This document shows, piece after piece, positions 5,621-28,864 of a stretch of 33,651 nucleotides of DNA (its first letter is position 1; each line of letters begins with the position of its first letter). This DNA comes from Candidatus Aenigmatarchaeota archaeon. GTDB lineage: Archaea; Aenigmatarchaeota; Aenigmatarchaeia; GW2011-AR5. Below the pieces are notes generated by a model, which worked only from the letters and a program-made list of their open reading frames with translations, had not been told where the DNA came from and searched no databases. The translations under genes and the position numbers were made by a program. The stretch covers positions 1 through 33,651 of the forward strand of contig JAZDJX010000035.1 of the NCBI GenBank assembly GCA_043803505.1. Direction: 5' to 3'.

Positions 5621-8600
5621 TTATCCACTACCAAAATGTTTGTCAAGCAAATTTTTGTAACCCCCGACATCATTATTTTTGATATTTTCTACATAATCGT
5701 AAATATCATTTGTACATCCTAGTCCATTATATGCACGGAGCGCAGCATCCATTCCATCATAATGTTTTGGAGGCTTACCAGTGCAATCTTGGTATCCATC
5801 GCCAGGTACATTATAGTCTAATCCACCATTTGCATACTGTCCTTCAAGTTTCTTCAGCCACTGTACGCCAAGCCATATGTTACAATCTACGTCATAGGAT
5901 GTTTTTTTACCTGCTTCACAATTTGCAGAATATATCATCCCGCACTCTACATCCTGATTGCTTTTTGGTGTCTTATAATATTTGCTTTTGCATTCGCTCA
6001 AACTGCTATATGGGTTATACCATGCTGGATGTACTTTTTTATTCAGCTGCATGACGCCAAAGCTGCTTCCATCATAGCTCATAAGTATGTTTGTTTCCGG
6101 ACATGTTTTCCACAATTCTGCAACCTGTTTGCATGAGCCAGCTTTTCTTTGTCCGGCAACAGCACAACAGTGTCTGAATCCACTTTCCTGTTGTACGAGT
6201 TTCAGTATAGTTTCTGTGTCTTCTCTTGAAAACCCAGTAAGTTCTGCAGCAGCAATAACATTTTCTATAATATTATCTCCTGTTACAACCTCTTTCGATA
6301 CGCAAGCCCCTATCTTCTCAACATTGTTTTCAACCCTTTTGGCGTTCGGGTCCCACTGGCATGGCAGCCCGCATACTCTACTTGCATCCCCACATTGTTC
6401 ATCGCTCAGGAAATTCTCGCACTTGGCGTTTGCGCAGGATTTGCACTCTCCAGGAAGCATCGGATGTTCAATGAAATAGCATTTTGCACCTTTCATGCTT
6501 TCGCATTTGCTTCTGGTGCATGGCATTATCCCTTTTCCGCAGCTTTCACATGTTTTTTCATCAGCATCAGCATAAGGGCCGAGAGGCGGTGTGACAAGTA
6601 TCTGCTTGTCCTTCATCACATTGACTTCGAACTTTTCCATGCTCGCTGTTACAAGTCCTGTCTTGACATCCTGCACAGCAGCTGTATGAAATTTGCACGT
6701 GAAGAAAAATATTGACTGGAATTTGTACTGGAGTATTTCTATTGCCTTGTCTTCATCAGGCAAAACAGTGCAGGTTACATCTTCCTTTTTGTCATCCGTA
6801 AATTCACATGAAACCTTTCCTGTGCAGTCCACTTTTTTGTCATCATTCCCTTCAGTAAGAAATGTGCCGATAATGCTCGGGAAATGAAGTAATATCTGGT
6901 CGCCTTTATAGAGCCTTATCGTTGCATCAGGCCTTGTGTTAAGAACAGAAATAAGCAATATGGCATTCTTGTTGCCTTCCAGTGGCTGCGGCCCCACATT
7001 CATGGAAATCTGCGCAGGCGTTGACTTGCCTACAGCACCAACAGGGCGGTATACAGTCTTTCCTTCAGATTCTCTTCTCTTTATTTCATCCCTTGACATC
7101 ACTTCAACGAAAATCGAGCTGTCTGTTGAGTATAGATATGTCATGTTGACACTGACCTTTGCAAATCTGACTTCAGCCTGCCGCTCTTCCTGCAAAGACA
7201 GCGCAAGAAAGCCTTCATATGTGATTCTGTCGCTCGCCTCTGTTGGAATATTAAATTTTTCATTTTTATCTATCTTTACATTTTTTTCCTCGCAGAATGT
7301 GTTGCAGCTGGCGCTGACCCTTATGTCTTTTGCTTCATAATCCTTGCCCTCATTTTTTATTACAGTGATAACAGAAAATTCCTCCCAGCCTGGCACGCTC
7401 TCAGGAAGTGCATCTATGCTCATAAACTCAAGCGCCTTGGGGTAATCCAGTGGATTCTCTGGCCTTACATTTCTCATCTGCTGTCGAGCATAAAACTCAG
7501 TTGGGTTTGTCGCGAGGAGCCACACATCACCGACTGCGCCTTTCAGGGCATTGAAGGCAATGGAAACCGGAGCCTTTACTTGTTCCTTGATAATCTGGTA
7601 ATAGCCTGAATACGGGCCGAGCGCAACGTAGCCGAAAACAAGCACCACAACAGCAAGTGTCCTAACGCTTTTGTAGCCGCCGACCTGGTAAATCTGGAAA
7701 ACGCCTACGAACAGGAATAATATCAGGCCGCCCAGAACAAAGAACCATGTGTTGCCTATGTTTGCCTGGGTAAGCCCGAACGAATACATGAAAATTATCA
7801 CAGCATACGCTAGCATTGCGCCTGATGCAAGATGCGTTATAAAGTCAAATGGCTGTTGTACAGCCTCTATATTTATTATAAACAAGATGACAGCACCCAT
7901 TGCCGGCATTATAAGCAGCAGCAGCGGATAATATCCAATCCACGAAAGCACAAAATAAAACTGAATTATGACTATGGCAGTGCCTACTGTCCACGGCCCG
8001 ATGACTATGTTTATGATGTTATGCAGCAGGTTCTCATAGACATCACCCACTGTCATCATACCGCGGCTCATGGACTTAAGAAAGCGCAATCCCCTAAATG
8101 CAGTTGTTCTGCCCCTTGTAACAAAATCCTCGGCTATTTCACTGGCATAACCTTTCAGTTCGTTTTTAAGGGCTTCTTGATCATCTGAATTAAGTGGAAT
8201 TTTCCAGCGTCTTGCAACGCCTATTGTAACAGTTTCTGCCTTGTCTTCAAGATATTTTTTGAGTTGTGCAGATGCTGCATTCAGGTCATTGTTAAAATTT
8301 TTTTCAAAATCGTCCCGTGCCTTAATAAATTCACTTAATATAATACTTTCCTGTTTCATTGCATTCAGCATAGCCGGATCTATAGCATTGGCACCACCTG
8401 CCGCGCTTTCGTGCTTGCCAACCTGGTTTAGCATGTCCATTGAATTCATGCCACTTCCTTTCCATAACCCGTGTTGCTTCCGCATAAGCCTTTTCAATTC
8501 TTTTTCTGCGTCCTTTGCATTTTTTTTCAATCCCTCTAAACGCACAACCTCTGTACCTTTTTTGCCAATTTTTGAGTTGGCGTATTTCAGATTAAAGTCC

Positions 8601-10619: not shown

Positions 10620-11732
10620 CTAGACCTTTACCTTCACGCCTATGTTCTTCACATAGAATCCTGAGTCATCCAGGCCCTTTATGATAAGAGAATTTGTGCC
10701 CTCTTTGACATCCTGCTTGCTGAAATAAAATGTATATGACTTTTCCTCAGCCCTGTCAAAGTCGCTGTAGGTTGTTTCTGCTACCCTGACAGAAAAGCCA
10801 CCGCTCTTTTTCACTCTCGGTACATCAAAGCTTATGATGCCAACCTTCATGCTATTATATTGTGCATTGCTGATTCTGAATTCTGTAATAAGTTCAGTTT
10901 CTATGTTTTTGACGAAGAATATATTGATAAATGCATTACCTGAAATCTTTGTATCTTTTCCTGGCTTGAATAGAAGAACATTATTGTCACGTACCATGTC
11001 AGATTTTTTTAGTGTCAGTGTCTGCATGTCGCGCACTGCGCCTGAATATATGGTCTTCCCGTTAAGCTCAAGATTCAGTATGCCAATGCTTTGATTCAAT
11101 CTTAGAACTATGTTGCCTTCCCTGAAAGTATCATATTCCACGCCAAGAGAAAATTTGTAGTCTGTTGTGTCCTGATATGTCGAAAAAAGAGTGATACTGG
11201 CATCTGTGAGCCCGTACAGCGACGGAGCCCACAATCTTATACCAGAGCTCATGGTTTCTATTTCAACAAGCATATCATCTGACAATCCCTCGCTTATTGA
11301 AAATTCATATCTGCCTGGTTCTAAAATCTTCTCCACTGCTGTTTTGCCGTTTATCCTGATCACAAGCGGCGCATAAGAGTTTGTCCTGTTGACAGAAAAA
11401 CTTATCTTCATCTCGTTTATGTTCCCGCCAATCCTGTATACAATGCTGCTTTTTCCTGAGAGCAGCCCGTTGTATACATCCTTGTTTCCCAATTCAATCT
11501 TTTTTGAATCAGCAAGATCTGATGCCTTAAACTCTGTTTTCAGCGTATCCGCCCTGTCAGCGCTACTCATACCAACAAATTGTGAACCAGCCGTATCACT
11601 GCTGATGTTCAACGGTACATATCCGCCGTTTCCTGCGCCAATAGCTGTGTCAATGCTGACACCGTTGGTTATAACAATCAATGCAGCGAGTATAACCAGC
11701 CCTGCTACAAGAAATGCTATAAATTCATCCAT
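10620..11732 (-). CDS. N-terminally anchored surface protein (M-D-E-F N-terminus)
   Basis: The track starts at GTG 11741. ATG 11732 gives MDEFIAFLVAGLVILAALIVITNG, a hydrophobic helix directly after an acidic residue. The remainder is beta-rich. It lies upstream of and co-oriented with the giant gene. Confidence 0.7.
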   Translation of the reverse strand: MDEFIAFLVAGLVILAALIVITNGVSIDTAIGAGNGGYVPLNISSDTAGSQFVGMSSADRADTLKTEFKASDLADSKKIELGNKDVYNGLLSGKSSIVYRIGGNINEMKISFSVNRTNSYAPLVIRINGKTAVEKILEPGRYEFSISEGLSDDMLVEIETMSSGIRLWAPSLYGLTDASITLFSTYQDTTDYKFSLGVEYDTFREGNIVLRLNQSIGILNLELNGKTIYSGAVRDMQTLTLKKSDMVRDNNVLLFKPGKDTKISGNAFINIFFVKNIETELITEFRISNAQYNSMKVGIISFDVPRVKKSGGFSVRVAETTYSDFDRAEEKSYTFYFSKQDVKEGTNSLIIKGLDDSGFYVKNIGVKVKV

Positions 11733-11887
11733 ATTAATCACTCAAAATATATTACTTTAGAGTAACTATAATACATAGATTTTTAAAGCTTTCCTTTCCA
11801 TGAAAACAAAAGGGTTAAAAACTTTTGAGGCTTATGTTAAATACCATAAACAATCAAAAAATTCAGCAAAACTGGAGGTGTAAAAGA

Positions 11888-12169
11888 ATGTCAGAAAAAG
11901 CAGCGGAAAACGTAATCTTCGTTGGAAAGAAACCGTTAATGGTCTACGTCCTTTCAGTCATGACACAGTTTAGCAACGGACAGGATGAAATAATGTTGAA
12001 GGCAAGGGGCAAGTCAGTAGGAAAGGCTGTTGACATAGCAGAAATCGTAAGAAACAAGTTCCTGACAAACGCATCAGTCAAAAACATAAAAATAGGTACA
12101 GAGCAGATAGTGGCTGAAAACAAGGACAAATTCAACGTTTCAACCATCGAAATAACAATGAAGAAGTAA
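11888..12169 (+). CDS. albA: Alba DNA/RNA-binding protein
   Basis: 93 aa from ATG 11888, with GGAGGTG (11874-11880) 7 nt upstream. Sequence NVIFVGKKPLMVYVLSVMTQF...KARGKSVGKAVDIAEIVRNKF is typical of Alba. The upstream part of the track's longer frame is probably not translated. Confidence 0.9.
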   Translation: MSEKAAENVIFVGKKPLMVYVLSVMTQFSNGQDEIMLKARGKSVGKAVDIAEIVRNKFLTNASVKNIKIGTEQIVAENKDKFNVSTIEITMKK

Positions 12170-12179
12170 AAATCTGAAC

Positions 12180-12198
12180 TTTTTTTCTTTTTTTTTTG
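12180..12198 (+). terminator. Oligo-T terminator after albA
   Basis: T8-C-T10 tract starts 11 nt after the albA stop. Archaeal RNA polymerase terminates at oligo-T tracts. Confidence 0.55.
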
Positions 12199-12281: not shown

Positions 12282-12312
12282 TTACTGCTAATAAAAGTTA
12301 GATAGTGATTTG

Positions 12313-12639
12313 ATGAAGGGTTTAGAACTTCCTATAAGCATGATTGTGGTCATTGCCATAGCAGTGCTGGTTCTTGTGATTGTCGCAGCATTCTTCACAA
12401 ATATTTTCGGAGGCACTGTCAACGATATCAACCTAGACAGCGCCATACAGAGTGCATGCAGCAACCTGCAGTTCACATACAATTGCAATATAGACAGATG
12501 GAATGAAGTATATTCAATGTACAAGGCGCCTGGAAAAGATGAAGAGCAGAGAACAAGCCTTGAGGAACTGTGTGACCTGAAAGGCATGGATATCAAGGCA
12601 TGTGCAGGAAAATGTGGATGCCCTATACCAAATATATAG
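12313..12639 (+). CDS. Class-III signal peptide (type IV pilin-like) protein, Cys-rich
   Basis: MKG|LELPISMIVVIAIAVLVLVIVAAFF has a basic residue plus Gly followed by a long hydrophobic helix. The C-terminal half contains 7 Cys. Confidence 0.75.
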   Translation: MKGLELPISMIVVIAIAVLVLVIVAAFFTNIFGGTVNDINLDSAIQSACSNLQFTYNCNIDRWNEVYSMYKAPGKDEEQRTSLEELCDLKGMDIKACAGKCGCPIPNI

Positions 12640-12676
12640 TGTGAAACAAATTCTTCAGCGTCAAGGAATAGATTAA

Positions 12677-13684
12677 TTATCCCCACTTGTCAAGCGATTT
12701 TTGCTCGCCTCTGCTTTCATCAAGTTTTTTTAATGCATTTTCAATGCGCTCTTCTGAAAACTCATGCTCATCGCATAGAATCTGCTTTACTTTTTCCGGA
12801 TAAGGCTCATGAAATTTTATGTCATAGCTGCATTTGAGAGGCTTGCGGAAAAACTCGTATATCTCTTCCATGGAAATATCAAAATCCCATATAACAGATT
12901 TCTTGACGGCATTCAGGGTTTTTTCTTTCACAAGCTCAAGCGCCTTTTTTGGCCCGTATCCTGTTACGCCACCAGGATTATAATCTGTGCCTGCAAGAAT
13001 GCCTATGAGTATAAGCTGGCTTTGATTTATGTCAAGTTCCCTGAGGGCATCATTGAGTATTATTATCTCAGGATTTATTGTAACATAACCGCCAGCTCTC
13101 TTTCGCCTTCCGCTTATGGAAAGGTTTCTCACAACCCTCGGGCAGCCAAAAAGCAGTGCATCATAATCCTGTGTTGCAGCAGCATAGGCATCGCCTTTCA
13201 TTGTTATCAGTGTGCACAACGCCTCACCTTCTGATGGCGCCTGAATATTTGGTATGCCCATGGCATCAAGCAACTGCTTGCTGTCGTCTATAATTTCATC
13301 AGTTATCGTTGCTGAGCGCTGTGCATATTTTCTTGCACCCTCAAAATCCTCTTTTTGTAACGCTTCCTTCCATGCATGCAAAGCCTCAAGCCGTATATCA
13401 CGCCTTTTTTCAGTAGTTTCTTTTTTAAGAACAGGTGGCTCGCCGTCAAAAACATATATGGGTTTTATGCCTGTCTCAAGCAGTCTCATATTTCTGTAAA
13501 ACAAGCCTGAAAGATGTGATGTTACCCTTCCTTTTGAATCCTCTAATGGTTTTCCATCCTTCTGTCTTATTATCGTGAGAAACTGGTAAATCCAGTTAAA
13601 TGCATCTATTGCAATGCGTTTTCCAGAAAGTTGTTCTAATCCTATCTCATTTGCCTTTATGATGTCACCGAGCTGGACACCCAT
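12677..13684 (-). CDS. fen: Flap endonuclease 1
   Basis: From ATG 13684: MGVQLGDII...KRIAIDAFNWIYQFL...GIKPIYVFDGEPP...GTDYNPGG. These are the canonical archaeal FEN-1/XPG N and I regions. The track frame starts 3 codons earlier at GTG. Confidence 0.92.
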   Translation of the reverse strand: MGVQLGDIIKANEIGLEQLSGKRIAIDAFNWIYQFLTIIRQKDGKPLEDSKGRVTSHLSGLFYRNMRLLETGIKPIYVFDGEPPVLKKETTEKRRDIRLEALHAWKEALQKEDFEGARKYAQRSATITDEIIDDSKQLLDAMGIPNIQAPSEGEALCTLITMKGDAYAAATQDYDALLFGCPRVVRNLSISGRRKRAGGYVTINPEIIILNDALRELDINQSQLILIGILAGTDYNPGGVTGYGPKKALELVKEKTLNAVKKSVIWDFDISMEEIYEFFRKPLKCSYDIKFHEPYPEKVKQILCDEHEFSEERIENALKKLDESRGEQKSLDKWG

Positions 13685-16777: not shown

Positions 16778-16786
16778 GTGAATACC

Positions 16787-18349
16787 ATGAAAGGCGGAGA
16801 ATATGCAATGGTAGAATTTTTTGTAGAGATGGTATTCATTGTTCTGCTCTTTCTTTTCGTTTACAATATTGTTTTAACGCTTGCAAATCCGGACATGCAG
16901 ATCGCCTTTCTGAATTCAGAACTTCTTGCATCAAAAATGGGCGAAGCATGTACAAACGACAAAGCAACACTTGACGGCTTCCAGCTTTCACAACCAAAAC
17001 CGTCAAACACGGTTACATCGGTGCTCAACATGGCTTCCAGCGGCGCAGCCACTGAGTTTTTTTCAAAGATAATGCTTGCAAGGTCATCAGATCCACACTT
17101 CCTGCTTTATTACGAGGCATTTCCATTTGGTGAATCTGTCGGATGGGATGTCTACCAGAACAATCGTAATATATTGTTCGCACCATTTGAGGTCGATGGG
17201 ACAGAAATAAAATCAAGCGTTTTTGAAGACAGGTTGTGGAGGAATTCTGATTATAATTTTCTGAACAGGACGTATACATCAGCCAAGGAAAAGATTTCTA
17301 ATGTAGGAGAAGAATTCAAAGAAGATAATGCTGAGTCAGTAGGTGCTGATATAATGGTTTATACTACAAATATAATGCTTGACGACAGACTCAACGCAAT
17401 ACCCACAGAGGAGCCCGAGCAGCTCTCCAAGACGTTCAAGAGGGAAGAAACAGGCAACCTTGGAAAATGGCAGAATGACGATTTCTATAAATTTTTCGGC
17501 TATGCAAGTCTCAAGACAGAAGAACAGATGGCTGTCAAGTACAGACCATGCGGTGTTAATTCTCTTTGTTTAAAAACAAGGGAAGGTGTCCATAGATTCA
17601 AGCTTGATGATGCATGTAAGAATATAAAATATGTGGAATTGGTTTATGATTCAACACACGCAACCATGAGCATAGTTAATGCATTGGAGGGTGGAGGGTC
17701 ATTAATAGCTGGAACGACCGTGACTATTGCGCTTCTTCTCAGATGGCAACCAAGAGCAGCTTCATTAATGGCCGCGCTCACGACATATGCTGGAGCAAAA
17801 TACGGCAAAGAAATGTTTTCAAACATACTAGGATACAAGAACTCTGATTTTTATTCAGCAAGCCCATGCAACATTAAGAGCAAGATAGAGATAAAGAAAA
17901 TAAGCTGTGCTGATATCAAGTGCAGCAAACTCATGAAATATCCTATATACAAGTACAGTAATGATGGGCAGAATGTAAATAAGGTTGGCGAACATTATAC
18001 ATGCATGCAGAACATAGGTGAAAATTTCGATTATGATAAATTAGACTCACAAAATATAGATGGCGACTGCATGCAGATAAAGGTCAGTGAGGTATACAAT
18101 GACTTCTGCTGGACGCCAGACCCATATTCACCAGCTTTATGGTCTAGCTTAAAAGATACTTTTAAAACACTAACAGGAAACATAGTTCATTCATTTCCAG
18201 TAAAAAAGAACACAGAATTCATGTTACTTGATGGTGTGAGCGCTGTTATGCTCAAGCCAGTTCCAGAAAGTTTTTCAAAAGCAGGTTTCTGGAAGACAAC
18301 TTTTGACCTTGACTGGCGCTGGCCCATGGGATATCTAGCACCAGGATGA
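16787..18349 (+). CDS. Large pilin-like/surface protein (class-III-like MKGG signal, then MVEFF helix)
   Basis: The track starts at GTG 16778. ATG 16787 gives MKGGEYAMVEFFVEMVFIVLLFLFVYNIVL. The ~490-aa extracellular part has a second hydrophobic stretch (GGGSLIAGTTVTIALLL) and many Cys. Confidence 0.75.
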   Translation: MKGGEYAMVEFFVEMVFIVLLFLFVYNIVLTLANPDMQIAFLNSELLASKMGEACTNDKATLDGFQLSQPKPSNTVTSVLNMASSGAATEFFSKIMLARSSDPHFLLYYEAFPFGESVGWDVYQNNRNILFAPFEVDGTEIKSSVFEDRLWRNSDYNFLNRTYTSAKEKISNVGEEFKEDNAESVGADIMVYTTNIMLDDRLNAIPTEEPEQLSKTFKREETGNLGKWQNDDFYKFFGYASLKTEEQMAVKYRPCGVNSLCLKTREGVHRFKLDDACKNIKYVELVYDSTHATMSIVNALEGGGSLIAGTTVTIALLLRWQPRAASLMAALTTYAGAKYGKEMFSNILGYKNSDFYSASPCNIKSKIEIKKISCADIKCSKLMKYPIYKYSNDGQNVNKVGEHYTCMQNIGENFDYDKLDSQNIDGDCMQIKVSEVYNDFCWTPDPYSPALWSSLKDTFKTLTGNIVHSFPVKKNTEFMLLDGVSAVMLKPVPESFSKAGFWKTTFDLDWRWPMGYLAPG

Positions 18350-18386
18350 AAATATTAACAAGAAATTCATACAAAAATTTTATTCT

Positions 18387-18529
18387 ATAGCCATCCAAAG
18401 AAATAAACATGATAAGATACCTTTGGTGACTACATGACGAAACTTTGTTTCGTCTGTACAGGTAAAGCCATGCTTTACCATGTATATGTGAACCAAATAA
18501 ATAATACCGACAAAACTTATTTGATTCAC
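18387..18529. repeat. Four-hairpin intergenic element (type B/C)
   Basis: hp0 pairs CCAAAG (18395-400) with CTTTGG (18421-26), with outer CA/TG and TAG/CTA pairs. After CAT, hp1 pairs GACGAAAC with GTTTCGTC around a ttt loop (18436-54). After TGTACA, hp2 pairs GGTAAAGC with GCTTTACC around a cat loop (18461-79). After ATGTATAT, hp3 pairs GTGAACCAAATAA (18488-500) with TTATTTGATTCAC (18517-29). Confidence 0.75.
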
Positions 18530-18588
18530 ATTATCTGTTTCACAAACTTTATTTATCAAGTTCTCCATATAGCATTACAGGTATACTA

Positions 18589-18996
18589 ATGAAAGGCATG
18601 ATGCTCAGCGCGCTGATTGTAATCGTGGTTGTAGGACTACTGCTGATTTATTTGGTATCGAGTATATTCGGCTCTGTTGCCTTGGTGACACAGACTTCTG
18701 CAAGGCTGAATGCCGAGAACGTCGCAGGCATAATAAACATGCTCATGACATCCTCAGAGCAAGCCACACAAAAATATATCATGCCAAAAATAGACTGCAC
18801 ACTCTCAATAAAAAACGGGTTTGTGGATTTTACTGTTAGAGGAAAACAGAATGAAATATGGATAATGCCGTATCTTAGGAGCAACATAGCTGTAGGAGAG
18901 CTGATAGAAAATTGCAATGCCCAGGCAGAAAAAGAACTGTATTTTACAAAATGTACAGATATGATTTTTATAGGATCCAGTCCTGTCGTATGTTGA
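18589..18996 (+). CDS. Class-III signal peptide (type IV pilin-like) protein
   Basis: MKG|MMLSALIVIVVVGLLLIYLVSSIFG, followed by a ~105-aa globular part with 4 Cys. Confidence 0.75.
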   Translation: MKGMMLSALIVIVVVGLLLIYLVSSIFGSVALVTQTSARLNAENVAGIINMLMTSSEQATQKYIMPKIDCTLSIKNGFVDFTVRGKQNEIWIMPYLRSNIAVGELIENCNAQAEKELYFTKCTDMIFIGSSPVVC

Positions 18997-19019
18997 AATC
19001 ATAATTGATGTGATGATGA

Positions 19020-19916
19020 ATGAAAAGACCGACATTCGTAGAAATTATGTCCTGGGTGCTGATTGTAATGGTAGTCATTATAGTCATGTTTTCTCTTATC
19101 GGCATCATGATAGACTTAAGGCCGACTGTTCAGTACAACATGGCTGAAAAATCTGTAGCCGAGATTTCTGAGAATTTGCTAAGCTCAGAATTAACAAATT
19201 CATATTCTGTTTTCAGCAGCGAAAAACTTTCAGCCCTGCATGGAAAAAATATAGAGACGGCAAGGGACTGCAGATATGGTTATGAAGTAACTTTTATTTG
19301 CCTTGACAAAAATAAGTGCAAAAGCCTTGATGTTGATGGAAATGACATTAACGGCAAATACAGTTTCGGATACAAAGAGGGATGGAGTTCCGGTATAATA
19401 GAGTCCATTGATCCTGTATCAAGAAGCGAGTACATTGTTGCCATCGAGGCACATGATGAAATTATACCGGCAAAAATGACCATTGAAATTTACGATACGC
19501 CACTGACAAGAACAGCCTGCATGATAGAAACAGCATATTCATTAAGGAAAACCCAGGAGGCAAGATGTGTCAGGTTTGACAAGGGCGGTGCATGCATAAT
19601 GCCTGCAGAAATAGGATTTGTACCAGGAATCGATATCAATTCATATGCAAAAGATGGCGATAAATTATGCGTTGTGAAGGATGTTAAAAAACGCAACTAC
19701 GAATTTGATGCATGCAGATACATGCCTGGTGTTGATTATTTAAATTTCATAATTGTGGAGCAGGTATCCAACATAAAAAAGATAAAGGCAGTTCCATTGA
19801 AAAACGTGCCTGATATTAACAGCAAGGTTACAAGTATACTGTGCAAAAATATTCCTGCCGATGTTTTGGCAGCTGAAACAGACTCGGATATTATTATTGC
19901 TTTGTGTGTGGAGTGA
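19020..19916 (+). CDS. N-terminally anchored pilin-like/surface protein (KRPTFVEIM N-terminus), Cys-rich
   Basis: MKRPTFVEIMSWVLIVMVVIIVMFSLIGIM. The extracellular part has about 10 Cys. It sits 23 nt after the previous gene. Confidence 0.7.
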   Translation: MKRPTFVEIMSWVLIVMVVIIVMFSLIGIMIDLRPTVQYNMAEKSVAEISENLLSSELTNSYSVFSSEKLSALHGKNIETARDCRYGYEVTFICLDKNKCKSLDVDGNDINGKYSFGYKEGWSSGIIESIDPVSRSEYIVAIEAHDEIIPAKMTIEIYDTPLTRTACMIETAYSLRKTQEARCVRFDKGGACIMPAEIGFVPGIDINSYAKDGDKLCVVKDVKKRNYEFDACRYMPGVDYLNFIIVEQVSNIKKIKAVPLKNVPDINSKVTSILCKNIPADVLAAETDSDIIIALCVE

Positions 19917-19920
19917 TTTC

Positions 19921-20754
19921 ATGGGAGTAATACTTCCGGTAATGTCGCTGACGCTTGTGCTGGTAATAGGCATATCAAGCCTGCTTGTCGGCATGATAGG
20001 CTACATTATATTTTCTCTGCCGTCAACAGGAGGCGGAAAAACAACATATAGTTTTGAATTTCTTGGCATGATTTCAAGGTCATTCTCAATTGCAAATATA
20101 ATTTCTGATGTGAATATTTATGATAGAACATTTCTTGAGCAGGCAATAGAATCAATGGCAACAGGCTCCACAGAAAATGGGAATGCAAATCCAATGTCAA
20201 TATCAGTTTTTATTGACAAATACGACATGCGTTTTTATAGCATTTCAATAGAAAAAGGTGGTAATGAAATATTTAACACAGACAATCTACCAAGAAAATG
20301 TGGAGGAAATGGCATATGTGTTCCTCAGTATGACGATGTAGAAAATTGCGGTGTCGGCAGGATAAAAATAGACGACAAAGAAACGTGCAAGAAATCAGAG
20401 CTTTGTTGCGAGGAAAATGAAAAAGCATATACGGAAACCAAAAATTCTTACACTATAGTCAAATGTGGCATAGGTGGAATCTGCACAACTGGTTATCATA
20501 TGGAAACGCTTACAGAAGCAGGCATAGAATATTCAGAAAGTTTTTGCGAGCCAGGCAGGATACCTATCGAAGAAAAAAGTAATGAATGTCATGTTGCCAA
20601 TAATGGTAATACACCTTTGTGCTGCAGGCCATTGACATTAATTACAAGTGCTTCAGAAACAGGAAATCTGGCACAGATTCCACTGCTTTTCAGGGGAATA
20701 AATGCACCCGAGCCATCATTTGGTTATGTGAATGTTATTACAGATGATAGATGA
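19921..20754 (+). CDS. N-terminally anchored surface protein with two Cys-knot-like repeats (KCG..GIC...GRI.I...C...LCC)
   Basis: The track frame starts at 19861 inside the previous gene. ATG 19921, 4 nt after the upstream stop, gives MGVILPVMSLTLVLVIGISSLLVGMIGYIIF. The two Cys modules are at aa 126-163 and 181-235. Confidence 0.7.
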   Translation: MGVILPVMSLTLVLVIGISSLLVGMIGYIIFSLPSTGGGKTTYSFEFLGMISRSFSIANIISDVNIYDRTFLEQAIESMATGSTENGNANPMSISVFIDKYDMRFYSISIEKGGNEIFNTDNLPRKCGGNGICVPQYDDVENCGVGRIKIDDKETCKKSELCCEENEKAYTETKNSYTIVKCGIGGICTTGYHMETLTEAGIEYSESFCEPGRIPIEEKSNECHVANNGNTPLCCRPLTLITSASETGNLAQIPLLFRGINAPEPSFGYVNVITDDR

Positions 20755-22595
20755 TTGTAATGAACAGCAATAAAGGTGATGCTAACATAATGCTCGCATT
20801 GGTCGGCATAATCTTCATAATTTTCATGCTTATCATTGTGCTGTCATCAGCATTTGGCGAGAACATAAAAAGGCACAAGATGATTTTTGACGAAGTCGGC
20901 ATAATGAAAGCAAAAAATACATTTGTTCTGTTAAACAGAAGCCTTACCGAGACATGGCGCATCTCATCAGCACAGGCAATTTACAATACAGGCGATGAAA
21001 GCATCGGCTGCGGGGCTGATGGTGATTTGGCTAAGGGCGATTTGGTTTATGGCTATTGGTATCAGTATAATCCTGCATCTGAAAAAACACCTTCATGCGC
21101 TGATAAAAATCCAGATGGAACAAACGATTGCAAGCTAAATGATGACGGAACAAACCGCTATCCTTATCCGAGATTGTCAGATGAAAAATACAATTATGCT
21201 GGTTATAATCCAAGAATATGTTTTCCACATGCCACACATCTTGTAAGTTATCTGGATGAAAAATTCAAGCCATACAAAAACATATCAAAAGAATTCGAGG
21301 CCAATAGTGCTAATGTAAAAATATCAAATATAAACAACAAATTCATCCTCACAGAAAACAATAAACTTGTAAATGATGTAACACAGGACATTTCCATAGA
21401 GCTTGGAAAGACAACAATAAAATCAAGCCCAGAATATAAAATAATTTTTGGTCCAGAGGTCTCAGACATTCTCTATGGTGGATGGATGGCAACACAACTT
21501 TTCCTGTCATTCTCAGATTCAATAACAGATGACAAAAATTTTTATAATGATGAAAGGACAAAAGATCCAGCCTATAATTATGGTTTGAGATATCAGAGTA
21601 TTTATGATGACAATCCCGATACAAAGGACTCATATGAAAAAAGAATTAAAGACGAAATCATCAACAAATCAATACTGCTGGAAAAAACACCACAAGCCAA
21701 GTTTAGTATTGATTTCAATGATTTTGAACTCATAGCGCACAATGAAAGCTATAAAATTTTAAGTTCCGTTACCCCGCCTTCAGGAACCACATATAAAACT
21801 GGTTTGATTCTTCATTATGATGCAACAGTCAGAATAACAGGAGAAAAAGGTATTGAAGCTGCAAATTGCATTGAGCCTAGCGATGACACAAAGAGCACCC
21901 TAGATGAAAAAGTAAATGGTGTTGACAATGCATGGCAGTTTGGAGATAAAAAATATACAAATGAAGAAATTGTCCAGCTTGTTGAGGCAATAATGCAGGT
22001 GAAGGATGGGCGATTTAATATGGATAGTAACAGGGAATCAAGCAACATAAAAGCAGCTATTGAATATATCCACGATTTATTTGATAAGTTGAAAAATGAT
22101 GCAAACAATGAAGAGAATATGATAAAGTTCGTTATCGCTGCATATGATTCTAACTGCGGTGAAGACTGCGTCAATAACGCTCGTGATATTGCAAGGGATG
22201 CCGGAAAAACAGACATATGGAATTACAATGAGATAAGCTCATTTTTGCCAGCAGAAACGCAGAATTATGTTGCAAAGGTACTCGGAAATTACATATGCTA
22301 CGGCGGCTTTGTAAGTTCCTCAGCAAATTATTATTTCAACGAGGAAAAGAATAAATTTTACAAAAAACCGTTTTCTCTTGTATTCAAAGTAGAGGACTAC
22401 CTGCCTGCCATTGATTGCAATATGCCGGCAACATATTTTTCATATATTACTGAAAATAGAAATGACCTGCTCTGCTGTGACGGCGTATTCTACTCTTGCA
22501 ATGTAGAAGGATTAGGAGGCAATAATATTCCTGTTGGCAATTCAGCTGATTGCATTGACGGTCAGTTTCAATGCAATGATAATGGCTTCGCCTAA
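20751..22595 (+). CDS. Large (614 aa) pilin-like protein with a degenerate SLT-like module
   Basis: ATGA overlap with the upstream stop. N-terminus is MIVMNSNKG|DANIMLALVGIIFIIFMLIIVL. At aa ~403-515: LVEAIMQVKDGRFN...NIKAAIEYIHDL...VIAAYDSNCG...LPAETQNYVAKVLGNY. The C-terminus is Cys-rich with LLCC. Confidence 0.8.
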   Translation: MIVMNSNKGDANIMLALVGIIFIIFMLIIVLSSAFGENIKRHKMIFDEVGIMKAKNTFVLLNRSLTETWRISSAQAIYNTGDESIGCGADGDLAKGDLVYGYWYQYNPASEKTPSCADKNPDGTNDCKLNDDGTNRYPYPRLSDEKYNYAGYNPRICFPHATHLVSYLDEKFKPYKNISKEFEANSANVKISNINNKFILTENNKLVNDVTQDISIELGKTTIKSSPEYKIIFGPEVSDILYGGWMATQLFLSFSDSITDDKNFYNDERTKDPAYNYGLRYQSIYDDNPDTKDSYEKRIKDEIINKSILLEKTPQAKFSIDFNDFELIAHNESYKILSSVTPPSGTTYKTGLILHYDATVRITGEKGIEAANCIEPSDDTKSTLDEKVNGVDNAWQFGDKKYTNEEIVQLVEAIMQVKDGRFNMDSNRESSNIKAAIEYIHDLFDKLKNDANNEENMIKFVIAAYDSNCGEDCVNNARDIARDAGKTDIWNYNEISSFLPAETQNYVAKVLGNYICYGGFVSSSANYYFNEEKNKFYKKPFSLVFKVEDYLPAIDCNMPATYFSYITENRNDLLCCDGVFYSCNVEGLGGNNIPVGNSADCIDGQFQCNDNGFA

Positions 22596-22640: not shown

Positions 22641-23288
22641 CTACTGGTAGCTTTCAATCGCCATGCCCTGTTTTTCCTTCATCTCATGTATCATATGAGA
22701 AAGCGATTCGATGTTTTTTGTCAGCGATGGCAAAAATTGTCTGAATGCCTTTTCAAGCCCGCCTATGCGCGCTTCAAGTTCATCAAGCCTTGTAAGCAAT
22801 TCATCTGACGGCCCCTGCATCGTAATAGGCTCTTTTTTTATGTTTTCTATCTTCAGGTCATATTGTTTTACGCCAGATTGCAGAGCATTCATGTTGTCCT
22901 CAATCCTTTTCATTCTATCCTCGAATTTTACCCATTTTTCTTCTATGACACCTTCAACAAGATCTTCTATAATAGCTTCAGGTGACTCTGTTTCTTCTTC
23001 CAATTCAGACAATCCCATCTCTTCAATTAGTTCTGATTTCTTTGGCTCCCCGAACAATTCTTCTTCCGGGGTTTTCATTTGTTCAATTCTCGGAGGTTCA
23101 AATCTTTGTTCCTGCGATGAAACACCCTTTCTGACAGCCTCGAGCATTGCACTTTCTATGCTCTCGTACGAATAGCCCTTCTTTTTCATCATTTTTATTA
23201 TCTCTTTGTCAGCCATGCCCTTCTGCATCATTTGTTGTATTTCCTCAGGCGAAACAGACCCGATGCTCTTTTTCTTTCCAAATAACAT
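22641..23288 (-). CDS. Acidic coiled-coil protein, hypothetical
   Basis: 215 aa with a Lys-rich N-terminus, a Glu-rich linker and heptad-like C-terminal half (LTRLDELEARIGGLEKAFRQF). It is divergent from the ATPase operon. No family recognised. Confidence 0.6.
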   Translation of the reverse strand: MLFGKKKSIGSVSPEEIQQMMQKGMADKEIIKMMKKKGYSYESIESAMLEAVRKGVSSQEQRFEPPRIEQMKTPEEELFGEPKKSELIEEMGLSELEEETESPEAIIEDLVEGVIEEKWVKFEDRMKRIEDNMNALQSGVKQYDLKIENIKKEPITMQGPSDELLTRLDELEARIGGLEKAFRQFLPSLTKNIESLSHMIHEMKEKQGMAIESYQ

Positions 23289-23430: not shown

Positions 23431-23868
23431 ATGGTGATTTTTGTGCCTGCACAGGATGAAAAATTTCAGATAATACTTCAGGAACTGGTGCGCAGGACAA
23501 ACGACGGCGTAAGAAGGCTAAGGGGCATTGAGCAGCGCGTTCAGGCAGTAGAGTCAAGACTCAATTCACTTGAGGAATCAGGACTTGCGCGCATAAAAAA
23601 AATAAATGAAAAATTTACAGAGAGCGATATACAGACGAGGAACATAAATGACGAGATGATGAAAATAAAAAACAGCCTTGAAAAAATAACAAGGCAGCTT
23701 TCAACTGTTGCATACAAAAAAGACATAAAGGAGATAGAGAACATGTTTGATCTTCTAAGTCCTGTAAAACAGGAATTTGTAACAAGGGATGAGTTGAAAG
23801 AGTTGGAAGAAGGCCGTTACGAATACAGGCCCGAGAGAAAACAGGAGAAGAAGCCAGAAATGGCATGA
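23431..23868 (+). CDS. Coiled-coil protein, hypothetical (first gene of the ATPase operon)
   Basis: 145 aa, helical and charged throughout (RLRGIEQRVQAVESRLNSLEE). Its stop at 23866-68 is immediately followed by the next ORF. Confidence 0.6.
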   Translation: MVIFVPAQDEKFQIILQELVRRTNDGVRRLRGIEQRVQAVESRLNSLEESGLARIKKINEKFTESDIQTRNINDEMMKIKNSLEKITRQLSTVAYKKDIKEIENMFDLLSPVKQEFVTRDELKELEEGRYEYRPERKQEKKPEMA

Positions 23869-23911: not shown

Positions 23912-24397
23912 ATGGTTTATGAATATGAATATGATGATGAGACACAAACAATAAAGATAAATGCAATGCACTCAATCTACGAATCCAGTATTGAAGACTA
24001 TGATGTTGTCATGGCAACAGCAATCGACAAGCTGCTTGAGGTGAAAAGGCCTGCAAGGATATTATTTTCGGGCTCAAGGGAAGTTGAATATGACTTTGTT
24101 GAATCAAGGCTTCTTCTCGAGATTGCGCTTGCGCTTGAAAAGATAATGAATGAAAAAATTGTCTCGTTAAAAAATGTTTCAATAGAAGGATGTGAACGTG
24201 ACATAAGGCCAAGATTTGTATTCATGCAAAGGGTTGTAAGCGATATCCGCTATGACCCGATAAAGGCCTATAGGAAATTGCTGCGCGAGATAAGGCATAC
24301 GACAGCCGATGAACAAAAAGAAACAGACGAGTGGCATAAAAAATGTTATGTGCACTATAAGGAAAACACACTGCTGCCAGTAAAAAAAAATACTTGA
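23912..24397 (+). CDS. Either the detached N-terminal part of the secretion ATPase or a separate small protein; it stops 5 codons after an A9 tract
   Basis: ATG 23912 (the track uses GTG 23870) gives MVYEYEYDDETQTIKINAM... The frame ends ...LLPVKKNT* just after the A9 run at 24382-24390. The ATPase frame opens inside that same run. Confidence 0.55.
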   Translation: MVYEYEYDDETQTIKINAMHSIYESSIEDYDVVMATAIDKLLEVKRPARILFSGSREVEYDFVESRLLLEIALALEKIMNEKIVSLKNVSIEGCERDIRPRFVFMQRVVSDIRYDPIKAYRKLLREIRHTTADEQKETDEWHKKCYVHYKENTLLPVKKNT

Positions 24398-24497
24398 AAA
24401 TTGTGAGCTCATACAGATAGCAAAGCCGAATCTTTCCCAGCACAGGAATCGTGAGCTTTACAGGAAAATCTTCCATCCAAGCGTAAGGCCGAACTTC

Positions 24498-26141
24498 ATG
24501 TACACAAGGTTCATGTCAATACCTCCTGAAAATGCAGAGCTGCTTGACAGGTATAAGATTGCTGATGCGACAGTGGAAATATTCCAGATTCCAGGGAAAA
24601 CAAGAAAACTCTATCATATTGTGCCACAGGAATTTCGTCTGGGTGACGATGAATACGTACTTCTCGACACAGCAAGAAGGTACCTTGGAAAACATGAACC
24701 GAGGCAGGCAGAGCTTTTAGAACCAGAAAGGATGCGCGATAATCTTTACAGGATTGGACTGGACATGCTGCGCGACATAGCAAAATCAGATGAAATAGAC
24801 TTGTCTGAGCGCAGGCTTCAGGAACTAGGTAACATACTGACGCGTTATACAGCCGGCCTCGGCACACTTGAATTGCTGCTTCAGGATGATAATATACAGG
24901 ATATCACAATAAATTCTCCTGTAGGTTTTGCTCCAATATATATCTATCATGGCACGCACAGCGAATGCGAAACAAATCTTATACCGACAAAGGAGGATGC
25001 GGAAAGCTGGGCAACAAGATTCAGGCTGCTGAGCGGAAGACCACTAGACGAGGCAAACCCAGTGCTTGATACTGAGCTTAATGTTCCTGGTGGTCGAGCT
25101 AGAGTAGCAGCAATAACACGGACGCTCTCGCCGGACGGTCTTGGATTTGCACTGAGAAGACACAGAGATAAGCCATGGACATTTCCGCTGTTTATAAGAA
25201 CAGGTATGTTCGACAGTTTTTCTGCAGGCTTGCTTTGGTTTATACTGGACGGCGCAAGGACAATTCTTATTGCAGGAACAAGGAGTTCTGGTAAGACATC
25301 ATTTCTCGGCTCATTGATGGTACAGATAATGCCGCATATCAGGATTGTCACTGTTGAAGACACGCTTGAGCTACCTGTAGAGGCTCTGCGAAAGCTTGGA
25401 TATAATATTGAGCGTCTCAAGTCGCGCAGCGTGATAACAAGGGTTGAAACAGAACTTCCTGCTGAAGAAGCTCTTAGAACAGCACTCCGCCTTGGAGATT
25501 CTGCATTGATTGTGGGCGAAGTCAGAAGCAAAGAGGCTTTAGCTCTCTATGAGGCAATGAGAATCGGCGCGCTTGCAAATGTGGTTGCAGGAACAATACA
25601 CGGAGAGAGTGCATATGGTGTATTCGACAGGGTTGTGAATGATCTCGGCGTGCCTGCAACATCATTCAAAGCAACGGATATTGTGCTCATAGCAAACATG
25701 TTGCGCTCTCCTGATGGACTGCATTCATTCAGGCGTGTTGTCGAGCTAACAGAAGTGAGAAAACACTGGAAATCTGACCCCGCAGAGGAAGGAGGATTCG
25801 TTAATCTTCTTGAATACTCTGCAAAAGATGACATTCTCAAGCCATCAAAGACATTACTCACAGGCGAAAGTACAGTCCTTAATGACATCGCCTCGCGTGT
25901 GCGCGACTGGAAAGGCTCGTGGGATGCTGTATGGGATAACGTAAATCTTCGTGCAAAAATACTTCAGACAGTTACCGATTCCGGGAAGGCGAAGCCGGAT
26001 TTGCTTGAGGCTACAAGCGTCATTGCATCAAATTCAATGTTTCATCTCATAAGCGACGATGTGAAAAAAGAGGTCGGCAGTCTTGACAGCAAGATGATTT
26101 ATGAGCGATGGAATGATTGGTACAAGAAGGCTTTTCTTTGA
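24498..26141 (+). CDS. Type II/IV secretion-family ATPase (archaeal FlaI/PilB/TadA/VirB11-like)
   Basis: Walker A is LIAGTRSSGKTSFLGSL. Walker B/Asp box is SALIVGEVRSKEA. His box is VAGTIHGESAYG. The first ATG is at 24498, but the frame is open and coding-like from 24384 (KKILENCELIQIAKPNLSQHRNRELYRKIFHPSVRPNF-M). Confidence 0.9.
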   Translation: MYTRFMSIPPENAELLDRYKIADATVEIFQIPGKTRKLYHIVPQEFRLGDDEYVLLDTARRYLGKHEPRQAELLEPERMRDNLYRIGLDMLRDIAKSDEIDLSERRLQELGNILTRYTAGLGTLELLLQDDNIQDITINSPVGFAPIYIYHGTHSECETNLIPTKEDAESWATRFRLLSGRPLDEANPVLDTELNVPGGRARVAAITRTLSPDGLGFALRRHRDKPWTFPLFIRTGMFDSFSAGLLWFILDGARTILIAGTRSSGKTSFLGSLMVQIMPHIRIVTVEDTLELPVEALRKLGYNIERLKSRSVITRVETELPAEEALRTALRLGDSALIVGEVRSKEALALYEAMRIGALANVVAGTIHGESAYGVFDRVVNDLGVPATSFKATDIVLIANMLRSPDGLHSFRRVVELTEVRKHWKSDPAEEGGFVNLLEYSAKDDILKPSKTLLTGESTVLNDIASRVRDWKGSWDAVWDNVNLRAKILQTVTDSGKAKPDLLEATSVIASNSMFHLISDDVKKEVGSLDSKMIYERWNDWYKKAFL

Positions 26142-27730: not shown

Positions 27731-28141
27731 ATGAAAGGTATTTCACCGCTTATTGCATCTGCCTTGCTTATCGTCATCACGATAGTTATAGCAGGTCTGA
27801 TAGCAAACTGGGCAACAACGCTTTCAAAAGGACAACTCGAGGAAGCCAACAAACAGACAGAATGCGCAAAAGGAACCATCGATATAATAAGTCTAGGTTA
27901 CACAGATGCTGTTAATAACAAGAATGTTACTGTAAGCTTGAGAAATATAGGCAAGACAGCTCTTACAGGAATAAGGGCAACATTGATTTACGACAATGAA
28001 ACATACGACAAAGAAATAATTGCATCTCTGAATTCGCTTGAAGCAAAAACCGAGAGAATAGATTCTGAAAGAAAGCCATTGAAGATCGAGATTATTTCTT
28101 TAACATGTCCTCAAAGCCCTGTTTCACGTACATTCCCGTAA
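27731..28141 (+). CDS. Archaeal type IV pilin (Pilin_N / DUF1628-type N-terminus)
   Basis: MKG|ISPLIASALLIVITIVIAGLIANWATT closely matches the archaeal pilin/flagellin N-terminal consensus (G-[IV]-SPVIA..LLI.IT...A). An Ig-like C-terminal part follows. Confidence 0.85.
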   Translation: MKGISPLIASALLIVITIVIAGLIANWATTLSKGQLEEANKQTECAKGTIDIISLGYTDAVNNKNVTVSLRNIGKTALTGIRATLIYDNETYDKEIIASLNSLEAKTERIDSERKPLKIEIISLTCPQSPVSRTFP

Positions 28142-28864
28142 GTGATTTCTATGATTTTTGAAAGCAATATCATTTTATTTAGCCTCTTGGCTGCTTTGGC
28201 AACCATACTTGGTGGCATTTTGCCATTGCTGACGAAGAAGGCCGATTCAAGACTGTTTGCTGCACTTGCTGCAGGAATTCTTATTTCAACTGCGTTTCTT
28301 GAAATCATACCAGAAGGTCTAAGTCTCGGCAATACTGCATTTGGCATTGCCATGGGATTTGTTTTGATGTACCTTCTCGAGCATGCGCTTATGATACATT
28401 CCAGCGCTGAACATGGCTGCAAGATACACAGGATAGGAATGGTGGGTATATGTGGCATAACATTTCACAGCTTGATAGATGGCATAGCTATTGCAGGCGG
28501 TTTTCTCGTTTCTCCTGTTCTTGGCATAGTGATTACAGTCAGCGTGATTGCGCATGAATTCCCTGAAGGGCTGGCAACAAGCTCACTGCTCCTTGCATCA
28601 AAGTACAGTAAAAAAGCAACTGTTATCGGATTTGTGATCGTTGCGCTCGCAACACCGATAGCAGCAATTGTAACAATGTCATATTCCCAATTCATAACAA
28701 GCTATGTTCTCGGGCTTGCACTTACATTTTCAGCAGGAACATTCATTTATATCGGAGCCACTGACCTGCTACCGTATGTGCATACGCAGAGAAGAAAGAA
28801 ATTCATGCTCGCATTTCTTGCTGGCTTCCTGGCAATAGTTCTACTTTCTGTTTATTTGGGATGA
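28142..28864 (+). CDS. ZIP-family divalent metal transporter (ZupT-like)
   Basis: About 8 TM helices. Contains the HEFPEGLATS motif and HSLIDGIAIA. Start is GTG 28142, directly after the pilin stop, or ATG 28151. Confidence 0.85.
   Translation: MISMIFESNIILFSLLAALATILGGILPLLTKKADSRLFAALAAGILISTAFLEIIPEGLSLGNTAFGIAMGFVLMYLLEHALMIHSSAEHGCKIHRIGMVGICGITFHSLIDGIAIAGGFLVSPVLGIVITVSVIAHEFPEGLATSSLLLASKYSKKATVIGFVIVALATPIAAIVTMSYSQFITSYVLGLALTFSAGTFIYIGATDLLPYVHTQRRKKFMLAFLAGFLAIVLLSVYLG

Follow-up and report, generated by a model that had tools for sequence, protein, structure and literature searches.

A secretion ATPase gene of an Aenigmatarchaeota archaeon, probably split by one surplus base in an A9 homopolymer

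In a 33,651-nucleotide contig of a Candidatus Aenigmatarchaeota archaeon (the window: the whole stretch of DNA that was analysed), the reading frame of a secretion ATPase is interrupted at a run of adenines. The question is whether the locus holds two genes, one gene that is switched or recoded at the run, or one gene in which the run is one base too long. Read directly from the sequence, the homopolymer consists of exactly nine A's (24382-24390, plus strand, as are all features below unless stated) and separates two reading frames. The upstream frame enters it as ...CCA GTA AAA AAA AAT ACT TGA and is closed by a premature TGA (24395-24397), 4 nt past the run. This leaves an ORF of 161 codons from ATG 23912 whose product, as written, ends in ...LLPVKKNT. 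The ATPase frame is bounded by a TAA (24381-24383) directly 5' of the run; thereafter 38 codons (24384-24497, KKILENCELIQIAKPNLSQHRNRELYRKIFHPSVRPNF) pass without any ATG, GTG or TTG before the first ATG at 24498, and the frame stops at 26139-26141. An earlier note on this DNA had located the A9, both stops and the start-less stretch, and all its coordinates held on direct reading. Its expectation that a change from A9 to A8 would fuse both ORFs into a protein of about 750 aa was borne out as well: with one A removed, a single ORF of 742 aa (23912-26141) was obtained, with the junction peptide ...LLPVKKILENCELIQIAK, and the letters of the TAA were then read as (G)TA A(AA). The effect of the ninth A is a TGA five codons past the Val codon and the displacement of the other 583 codons to the +1 frame. 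The 5' fragment (23912-24397) thus holds ATPase residues 1-159, followed by out-of-frame N and T and the TGA. A start at GTG 23870, given by a mechanical listing, was set aside; ATG 23912 agrees with MVxEYEYD at the N-terminus of the orthologues and is preceded by GGTG at a distance of 8 nt, and many genes in the window carry an upstream GGTG or GTGAT.

The repaired protein was covered over 99-100% of its length by more than 100 orthologues from Aenigmarchaeota (DPANN), which were 735-758 aa long and 60-76% identical to it. At the junction, ...LLPVKK|ILENCELIQIAK... aligned with ...LLPIxxILENCxLIQxAK... of the orthologues, and the alignment was gapless and colinear. The earlier note had raised the check whether orthologous ATPases carry a homologous N-terminal domain of ~170 aa in one frame, and they do, in one ORF at every orthologous locus: the gene was in a single frame in 26 of 26 related loci, of which 23 span the junction and show no frameshift (0/23). 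It had also considered the start-less codons to look coding, and 30 of the 38 residues fit the orthologue consensus, the stretch ranking with the best conserved of the protein. These codons bridge the two ORFs and encode the last helices of the N-terminal domain together with the conserved motif NRxLYRKIFHPxxRPNF; in a model of an orthologue, the bridge residues sit in confident helices (H140-161, H164-175 and H180-185). Among the alignment columns conserved to at least 95%, the repaired protein keeps 22/22, 9/9 (bridge) and 232/235, in total 263 of 266, while intact orthologues miss a median of 2. Judged by these columns, the repaired ATPase appears to be free of decay, its conserved positions being kept as in intact orthologues. 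Taken together, the comparison indicates that 23912-26141 is one ATPase gene, whose product is conserved as one polypeptide in all of Aenigmarchaeota and in DPANN archaea related to them.

The protein is a member of the T2SSE (FlaI-GspE-VirB11) superfamily. Pfam PF00437 (T2SSE) matched residues 256-440 of the 585-aa translation of 24384-26138 with 63.2 bits (cut-off 24.9), and residues 305-631 matched afGspE (2OAP, E = 5e-30) and FlaI (4II7, E = 1e-21). The Walker A motif GTRSSGKT (residues 455-462; 25275-25298) is intact, and it is nearly invariant in the orthologues, as are ALIVGEVRS (531-539) and GTIHG (560-564). The two-domain (NTD plus CTD) fold was tested on the AF2 model of an orthologue 76% identical to the window protein. 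Foldseek matched this model to 2OAP (E = 2e-24, TMt 0.69-0.75) and to FlaI (TMt 0.60-0.70), and the fold match spanned about 550 columns with a TM of up to 0.75, target-normalised. However, against the FlaI/ArlI equivalog model (NCBIfam NF058587) the protein reached only 136.4 bits where the cut-off is 550. It is thus no orthologue of archaellum FlaI but belongs to a distinct subfamily with extensions at both termini: an N-terminal domain of about 190 aa, specific to the lineage, precedes the FlaI/afGspE-like core with its Walker A, and a helical extension follows it. It shares superfamily, fold and Walker A with afGspE of Archaeoglobus fulgidus (2OAP) and FlaI/ArlI of Sulfolobus acidocaldarius (4II7/4IHQ), but adds to them the N-terminal domain, which has no solved analogue, and a longer C-terminal helical extension. 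The N-terminal domain gave no Pfam match and no Foldseek match in the PDB at E <= 0.001; the AF2 model of the N-terminal fragment was confident (pLDDT 90.5). In the model, the break falls close to where a confident helix of the folded domain ends (pLDDT about 90), and outside the linker at residues 190-194.

The earlier note had spoken of a pilus system. What speaks for this, besides the FlaI/GspE-type protein itself, is an archaeal type IV pilin-like gene (MKGISPLIASALLIVITIV..., 27731-28141) 1.6 kb downstream of the ATPase, which scored 26.8 bits in TIGR02537 (cut-off 20) and matched Pfam Pilin_N with E = 2e-4. No other pilus substrate could be recognised close to the ATPase, and no ORF of the window matched a platform protein (FlaJ/TadC/PilC, PF00482), so that a pilus system has only loose support. 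Five upstream ORFs begin with an N-terminal hydrophobic helix and have no family match. Two genes for coiled-coil proteins are syntenic neighbours. One encodes 215 aa (22641-23288, minus strand) and has 39-44% identical homologues adjoining the ATPase in six loci. The other encodes 145 aa (23431-23868) and has 46-49% identical homologues upstream of the ATPase in nine loci; in the window it runs in the direction of the ATPase, in the other loci it is divergent. An in-frame stop between 27731-28141 and 28142-28864 was rejected as a second break, as the pilin gene is followed by a ZIP transporter gene from ATG 28151. Elsewhere in the window, the 56-nt overlap of 19020-19916 and 19861-20754 vanishes if the second gene starts at ATG 19921 (MGVILPV...).

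With one gene at hand, it can be asked where the run came from. The in-frame A8 is the default-codon spelling of V-K-K-I (GTA AAA AAA ATA). In the window, AAA is preferred over AAG for Lys by 505 to 256, AAA-AAA is the commonest spelling of Lys-Lys (39 of 70 pairs), ATA is the commonest Ile codon, and AAT is the commoner Asn codon (299:157). The A9 sequence is not over-represented either, with 3 matches against 4.7 expected in shuffles. It is, at 24382-24390, the longest coding homopolymer of the window and the only homopolymer there at which altering the length by one base fuses two long stretches of open frame (194 + 582 open codons); for an A9 to sit just where the frame of a conserved gene switches is far beyond chance. 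Three other candidates for such a join (30478, 31279 and 17057) were noise that joins just 61-80 open codons inside intact ORFs, the first two within LysRS on the opposite strand and the third within a 523-aa ORF (16778-18349). The two Lys positions are variable in the orthologues, where AA, AV, EN, RD, KT, QQ, KI, HE and ES were found, and an A-run at the junction codons was present in none of the 14 loci whose codons there were read.

We consider it probable (about 0.85) that the locus is a single gene whose length changed by one base, unprogrammed, at a homopolymer that is there by chance, in other words through an ordinary homopolymer slip. Two variable positions would happen to be Lys-Lys in this lineage, default codons would make of them an A8 tract, and A8 would become A9 by miscount or slipped-strand insertion, with the loss of the frame. 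Polymerase slippage and sequencing miscounts both classically become appreciable once A/T homopolymers reach nine (PMC1088944). We infer that the change is unselected. It could have entered in two ways, as an artefact or as a genuine indel, both of them among the four readings between which the earlier note did not choose, and how they share the weight is our own reading of the evidence. There is almost an even chance that A9 is a sequencing or assembly miscount, or an A8/A9 mixture left unresolved. The break lies at a long homopolymer, and a one-base repair restores an undecayed orthologous protein. As in known homopolymer-length errors, a one-base discrepancy falls on the longest coding homopolymer of the contig in an otherwise perfectly conserved gene. 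However, the rest of the contig does not show homopolymer-associated breaks, and nothing points to a systematic mode of error. In the working gene map, the ORFs are uninterrupted at each of the 235 further coding A/T runs of 5-8 nt, which include four 8-mers and twenty-one 7-mers, so an error-prone homopolymer caller is not the source of the contig. Short-read assemblies seldom contain a majority-consensus miscall at an A9, and this too counts against an artefact. It is possible, at somewhat under even odds, that A9 is instead a very recent slipped-strand insertion in the sampled population, a null and readily revertible allele. The strong conservation of the gene counts against this, since a null allele should be selected against, and for such an allele to be the consensus would need relaxed or fluctuating selection. 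If A9 is real, some full-length protein may still arise, because nine A's in the template suffice for RNA polymerase to slip.

That A9 is genuine and also put to use, either as a reversible A8/A9 switch or by slippage read-through that yields an N-terminal fragment together with the full ATPase, is unlikely. The first of these possibilities, a selected contingency locus at which slipped-strand mispairing toggles a pilus/secretion-type ATPase between A8 (ON) and A9 (OFF), has little probability in our view. Such a switch would turn on and off, within the population, a surface structure that viruses may use as a receptor or that may attach the cell to its host. The tract is hypermutable and does lie within the first fifth of a gene for surface machinery, the gene is undecayed as expected with frequent OFF reversion, and nearby are the pilin-like gene and several others whose products have a hydrophobic helix at the N-terminus. 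Furthermore, it has been proposed that homopolymeric tracts serve prokaryotes in general as ON/OFF regulators (PMC2831843), and in bacterial slipped-strand contingency genes, with poly-G or poly-A in pilus and surface genes, it is likewise the length of a coding tract that sets ON or OFF (PMC2831843). However, the tract here bears no sign of maintenance, polymorphism or over-representation: it is spelled in default V-K-K-I codons, is neither longer nor commoner than composition predicts, and has no counterpart at this position in any orthologue, and four A8/T8 tracts occur in unrelated genes of the window. No near-identical sequence, in which a length polymorphism might show, was found in the genome and metagenome collections. 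There, the exact pattern allowing A6-A11 gave 0 matches in the contigs, and in protein-guided scans the nearest sequences were 70% (full length) or 83% (partial) identical in genomes and 76% in metagenomes. An exact-product look-up of the 547-aa ORF returned no record. In the literature searched, we found no demonstrated phase-variable homopolymer gene in DPANN archaea.

Equally improbable is that A9 is real and the relevant full-length ATPase is made by recoding, through slipping of RNA polymerase on T9 (giving A8 or A11 mRNAs) or a +1 slip of tRNA-Lys on AAA-AAA-A, in which case both the 161-aa N-terminal fragment and the full protein could possibly be produced. Several points agree with it. 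Productive transcriptional slippage is documented at nine A's, and selection against such runs is visible in many bacterial genomes (PMC1088944); a run of at least nine A or T at the frame junction, the threshold taken from the same study, is present here as A9. In addition, the run allows tRNA-Lys a perfect re-pairing in the +1 frame, and the gene is undecayed. A secretion-system gene rescued in this way is known, namely tssM (PMC4256274). The locus in fact resembles the A9 of Thermus thermophilus dnaX, the A11 of Citrobacter rodentium tssM and the poly(A) cases of endosymbionts in having at least nine A's at a frame change with an undecayed downstream frame (PMC1088944, PMC4256274), and it is again a gene of a secretion machinery that carries the run (PMC4256274). 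However, relatives of those genes share the run and the two-frame layout, or experiments have shown them, whereas here neither was found in a relative: none of the 23 loci that cover the junction is frameshifted, and none of the 14 loci read at these codons has the run. The correction needed here is also -1 or +2 nt, the less favoured direction, as transcription errors at homopolymers are mostly +1 insertions (PMC5574713). For ribosomal frameshifting, no cis stimulators were found, neither an RNA structure nor a Shine-Dalgarno-like motif. The flanks of the run do not fold better than shuffles (z = -0.37, +0.39 and +1.39), and the slip codon is directly followed by AAU, neither a stop nor an evidently rare codon. 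Moreover, the 161-aa product would be a truncated domain without its last helices. In Archaea, the only experimentally established programmed frameshift is the -1 event of fucA1 (PMC8211752, PMC8037382). The Sulfolobus solfataricus gene is similarly split at an A-rich heptamer (A-AAA-AAT) and has full-length homologues elsewhere (PMC8211752). However, fucA1 shifts by -1, its slippery site is conserved in related strains together with a putative stem-loop and rare codons, and the shift was experimentally verified; here a +1 shift is needed, and a conserved slippery site, a stem-loop and rare codons were not found. Programmed +1 frameshifting or transcriptional slippage, which the earlier note had listed among its readings, thus received no positive support from a site that is unconserved, unstructured in its flanks and built of default codons.

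The remaining reading of that note, two real genes with an untranslated spacer, in which a 161-aa protein is followed by a 547-aa ATPase initiated at ATG 24498 (24498-26141, as a gene caller would see it), is refuted by the single ORFs and the conserved coding 'spacer' of the orthologues, and we leave it next to no probability. ATG 24498 does lie just past the predicted inter-domain linker (pLDDT <50 at residues 190-194), so that the 547-aa product would hold the whole FlaI/afGspE-like core along with the C-terminal helical extension. However, this codon corresponds to a conserved internal Met (Met/Ile) of the NF[MI]YTRY motif in the orthologues, no SD-like motif was found upstream of it, and the upstream product would stop inside its own domain, before its last two helices. 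Candidates for stand-alone N-domain genes, matches of 150-270 aa to the 161-aa ORF among 1.84 billion protein representatives, were rejected as fragments: all of them run into the bridge motif, end abruptly, or end in unrelated sequence.

The reading of one gene with a surplus A has a direct bearing on annotation: records should give the locus as a single ATPase gene of about 742 aa with a frameshift, or corrected to A8 if reads bear this out, and not as a hypothetical protein and a 547-aa ATPase. As it stands, nothing in the sequence demands more than an ordinary homopolymer slip. Should an A9 switch or a rescue by slippage be true after all, it would be the first documented case of its kind in a DPANN archaeon. 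If the extra A is real, a DPANN archaeon would have a pilus/secretion motor that was inactivated spontaneously and could easily revert. As host contact in these archaea is thought to be made through surface appendages, the locus would then offer a convenient test, provided by nature, of how archaeal polymerases slip on homopolymers.

Direct reading of the window confirmed the earlier note's description of the sequence at the A-run. Nine A residues occupy 24382-24390, and the upstream frame reads CCA GTA AAA AAA AAT ACT TGA, with its stop at 24395-24397. The ATPase frame has a TAA at 24381-24383, followed by 38 codons (KKILENCELIQIAKPNLSQHRNRELYRKIFHPSVRPNF) free of ATG, GTG and TTG and then by ATG 24498, and it ends at 26141. 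Removal of one A fused the two frames as had been claimed, and the ORF from ATG 23912 then encoded 742 aa (about 750 aa had been estimated). The window is AT-rich, and A9 was matched three times vs 4.7 expected from dinucleotide shuffles. A9 as such is unremarkable for this composition; its position is the non-random part. When homopolymers on both strands were scanned, this was the sole run where changing one base connected two long open frames (of 194 and 582 codons), of which the upstream one is shut 4 nt past the run and the downstream one is open from it. The longest homopolymer of the window is a T10 run (12188-12197). It lies in unassigned sequence flanked by minus-strand ORFs 10620-11741 and 12288-12686, as does a 114-aa TTG ORF (11825-12169, plus strand).

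Orthologues carry this gene in one piece. The downstream part contained Pfam T2SSE (63.2 bits vs a cut-off of 24.9). In the protein database, the repaired 742-aa protein, in which A9 is read as A8, had more than 100 matches of 735-758 aa with 60-76% identity and 99-100% coverage. Those with a source name were mostly 'type II/IV secretion system ATPase subunit' of Candidatus Aenigmarchaeota/Aenigmatarchaeota, and the sole short match at 100% identity was the window's own 547-aa call. The alignment across the junction was gapless and colinear (LLPVKK followed by ILENCELIQIAK in the window, LLPIxxILENCxLIQxAK in the consensus). The ATPase gene was in a single frame in 26/26 related loci, drawn from GTDB genomes and from JGI/ENA metagenomes, and none of the 23 loci covering the junction had a frameshift there. 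The earlier note had asked whether orthologues include the N-terminal part in that frame, and all 23 loci spanning the junction did so; intein-separated pieces of orthologues were likewise in one frame. Inteins (Pfam PF14528 LAGLIDADG_3 and PF14890), one or two per protein, are present in many orthologues, for example at loci L009, L012, L013, L014, L018, L019, L021 and L022 and in proteins P0055, P0065, P0085 and others (1243-1251 aa). Site 1 is directly after Walker A, after residue 462 (GTRSSGKT/S; window equivalent 25298/25299), and site 2 is after ~residue 539 (ALIVGEVRS; ~25529); neither intein was present in the window's ATPase gene.

The nearest solved relatives were A. fulgidus GspE (2OAP, residues 121-429 corresponding to query 305-631, E = 5e-30) and FlaI (4II7/4IHQ). 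The AlphaFold model of an orthologue with 76% identity (P0001) superposed on GspE/FlaI structures over ~550 columns, with TM of at most 0.75 per target. Identity with the FlaI equivalog was ruled out by a score of 136 bits vs a cut-off of 550. It follows from these GspE/FlaI matches that the first ~190 residues form an extension peculiar to this DPANN family. The extension (23912-24497, residues 1-195 of the repaired protein) matched no Pfam family. The window's own 161 aa gave a confident model (pLDDT 90.5), and Foldseek returned no match of the extension to any solved structure in PDB at E <= 0.001. It is widely distributed, with 106 representative clusters at E <= 1e-3, and Cys94 and Cys145-x2-His148 are nearly invariant. 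The G+C of the ATPase gene is 0.44 overall and 0.48 in its 3' half, vs a window average of ~0.39 (interval 24001-26000); that of its orthologues ranges from 0.39 to 0.58. Two minus-strand ORFs inside the gene (24947-25531, 194 aa; 25547-25888, 113 aa) had 57-78% identity across orthologous loci; the simplest view is that they are shadow ORFs, not genes, and reflect a sense strand that is strongly conserved and comparatively GC-rich.

An old pseudogene was ruled out by undecayed conserved columns. At columns conserved at >=95% in 108 orthologues, the repaired protein kept 22/22 in the N part, 9/9 in the bridge (the 38 codons, 24384-24497) and 232/235 in the rest. The three departures were all conservative (F/Y, Q/P, V/I), and intact orthologues tested likewise missed a median of 2 columns (range 0-5). 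The lack of decay indicates that the extra A is absent from the organism, or very recent, or reversible. A sequencing or assembly artefact is put only marginally ahead, at a probability of roughly 45%; this figure and the gradings that follow are our own estimates, based on what is generally known about how often indels occur in assemblies and pseudogenes in genomes, and were not computed. Residual indels in modern assemblies gather at the longest homopolymers, A9 is the single longest coding homopolymer, and the ATPase gene is otherwise flawless. However, coding A/T runs of 5-8 nt elsewhere number 235, among them four 8-mers (696, 8520, 15877, 23595) and twenty-one 7-mers, and every one leaves its ORF unbroken, which argues against a systematic homopolymer error. 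A genuine, unselected and recent slipped-strand insertion is almost as probable: A9 consensus miscalls are uncommon in short reads, and the rate of mutation from A8 to A9 is high. No near-identical sequence was found in the genome and metagenome collections searched, and the top match to the repaired protein in the protein database was at 76%.

Functionally relevant recoding across A9, by programmed frameshifting or slippage, is improbable. No orthologue had an A-run at the junction codons (14 loci with codons read there), and the two Lys positions were variable (AA, AV, EN, RD, KT, QQ, KI, HE, ES). The A8 tract in frame is the outcome of default codon choice for V-K-K-I: AAA outnumbers AAG 505:256, Lys-Lys is most often spelled AAA-AAA (39/70) and Ile most often ATA. 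RNA flanking the run was no more stably folded than its shuffled versions (z = -0.37, +0.39, +1.39), and the zero-frame codon after it is AAT, the commoner Asn codon, neither stop nor rare. In many bacteria, slippage by RNA polymerase starts to be appreciable at nine A's, a length exploited by Thermus dnaX and IS elements (PMC1088944); Citrobacter tssM is rescued by an A11 run (PMC4256274). A genuine A9 would therefore be likely to yield some corrected mRNA. However, the mRNA would have to be corrected by -1 or +2 nt, whereas homopolymer slippage mostly adds one base (PMC5574713), and the fucA1 -1 frameshift is the sole established case in Archaea (PMC8211752). Selected phase variation of the A-tract is also quite unlikely. 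The likeness to slippage-rescued genes and contingency loci is limited to at least nine A's at a frame junction, while their defining features (conservation, stimulators, tract over-representation) were lacking wherever they could be checked.

Two real genes with an untranslated spacer, the ATPase being initiated at ATG 24498, can be rejected with near certainty: besides the single frame in all loci, the 'spacer' is among the family's best-conserved stretches (consensus matched at 30/38 residues), ATG 24498 falls on the conserved Met/Ile position of the NF[MI]YTRY motif, and it lacks the Shine-Dalgarno-like GGTG/GTGAT that precedes many window genes, including the true start 23912. A search of the 161-aa ORF against 1.84 billion representative proteins for a stand-alone N-domain returned many matches of 150-270 aa; on inspection they ran into the bridge motif or ended abruptly, and are thus contig-end or damaged fragments. 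In the structural model, the folded N-domain (pLDDT ~90) is broken close to where its helix 140-161 ends, two further helices of the domain lie downstream, and the true inter-domain linker is at 190-194 (pLDDT <50), so that a 161-aa product would be a truncated domain.

The ATPase had been assigned to a pilus system. A pilin-like gene was found nearby (27731-28141, plus strand) but no FlaJ/TadC platform protein was recognised among window ORFs, so the assignment is plausible, not demonstrated. In related genomes, synteny with the ATPase extends to two small coiled-coil genes, which lie in the window at 22641-23288 (minus strand) and 23431-23868 (plus strand, 145 aa). The 145-aa gene was divergent in all related loci examined (L002, L003, L006, L007, L009, L012-L014) and is co-directional here, pointing to a small local inversion in the window's lineage. 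Upstream, five co-directional plus-strand ORFs (16778-22595; 523, 135, 298, ~278 and 614 aa) each start with a hydrophobic helix, and several are Cys-rich. None had a Pfam family above the gathering threshold (the 614-aa ORF had a sub-threshold SLT match, 16.3 vs 21.3 bits), and the 135-aa ORF, the sole one searched against NCBIfam, had no match there; the five may represent divergent pilins or else surface proteins. A 1497-aa ORF (5621-10114, minus strand) with only a weak InlB B-repeat-like match probably encodes a giant surface protein; its region has raised G+C (0.41-0.45 vs ~0.38 around), and an in-frame 8-nt homopolymer (8520-8527) lies inside it.

Taken together, the frameshift belongs to a familiar class of homopolymer events and is nothing out of the ordinary, and the practical upshot is that the annotation should be corrected. 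The ATPase gene adds one more member to a DPANN subfamily of FlaI/GspE-type ATPases that is already known, though little studied.
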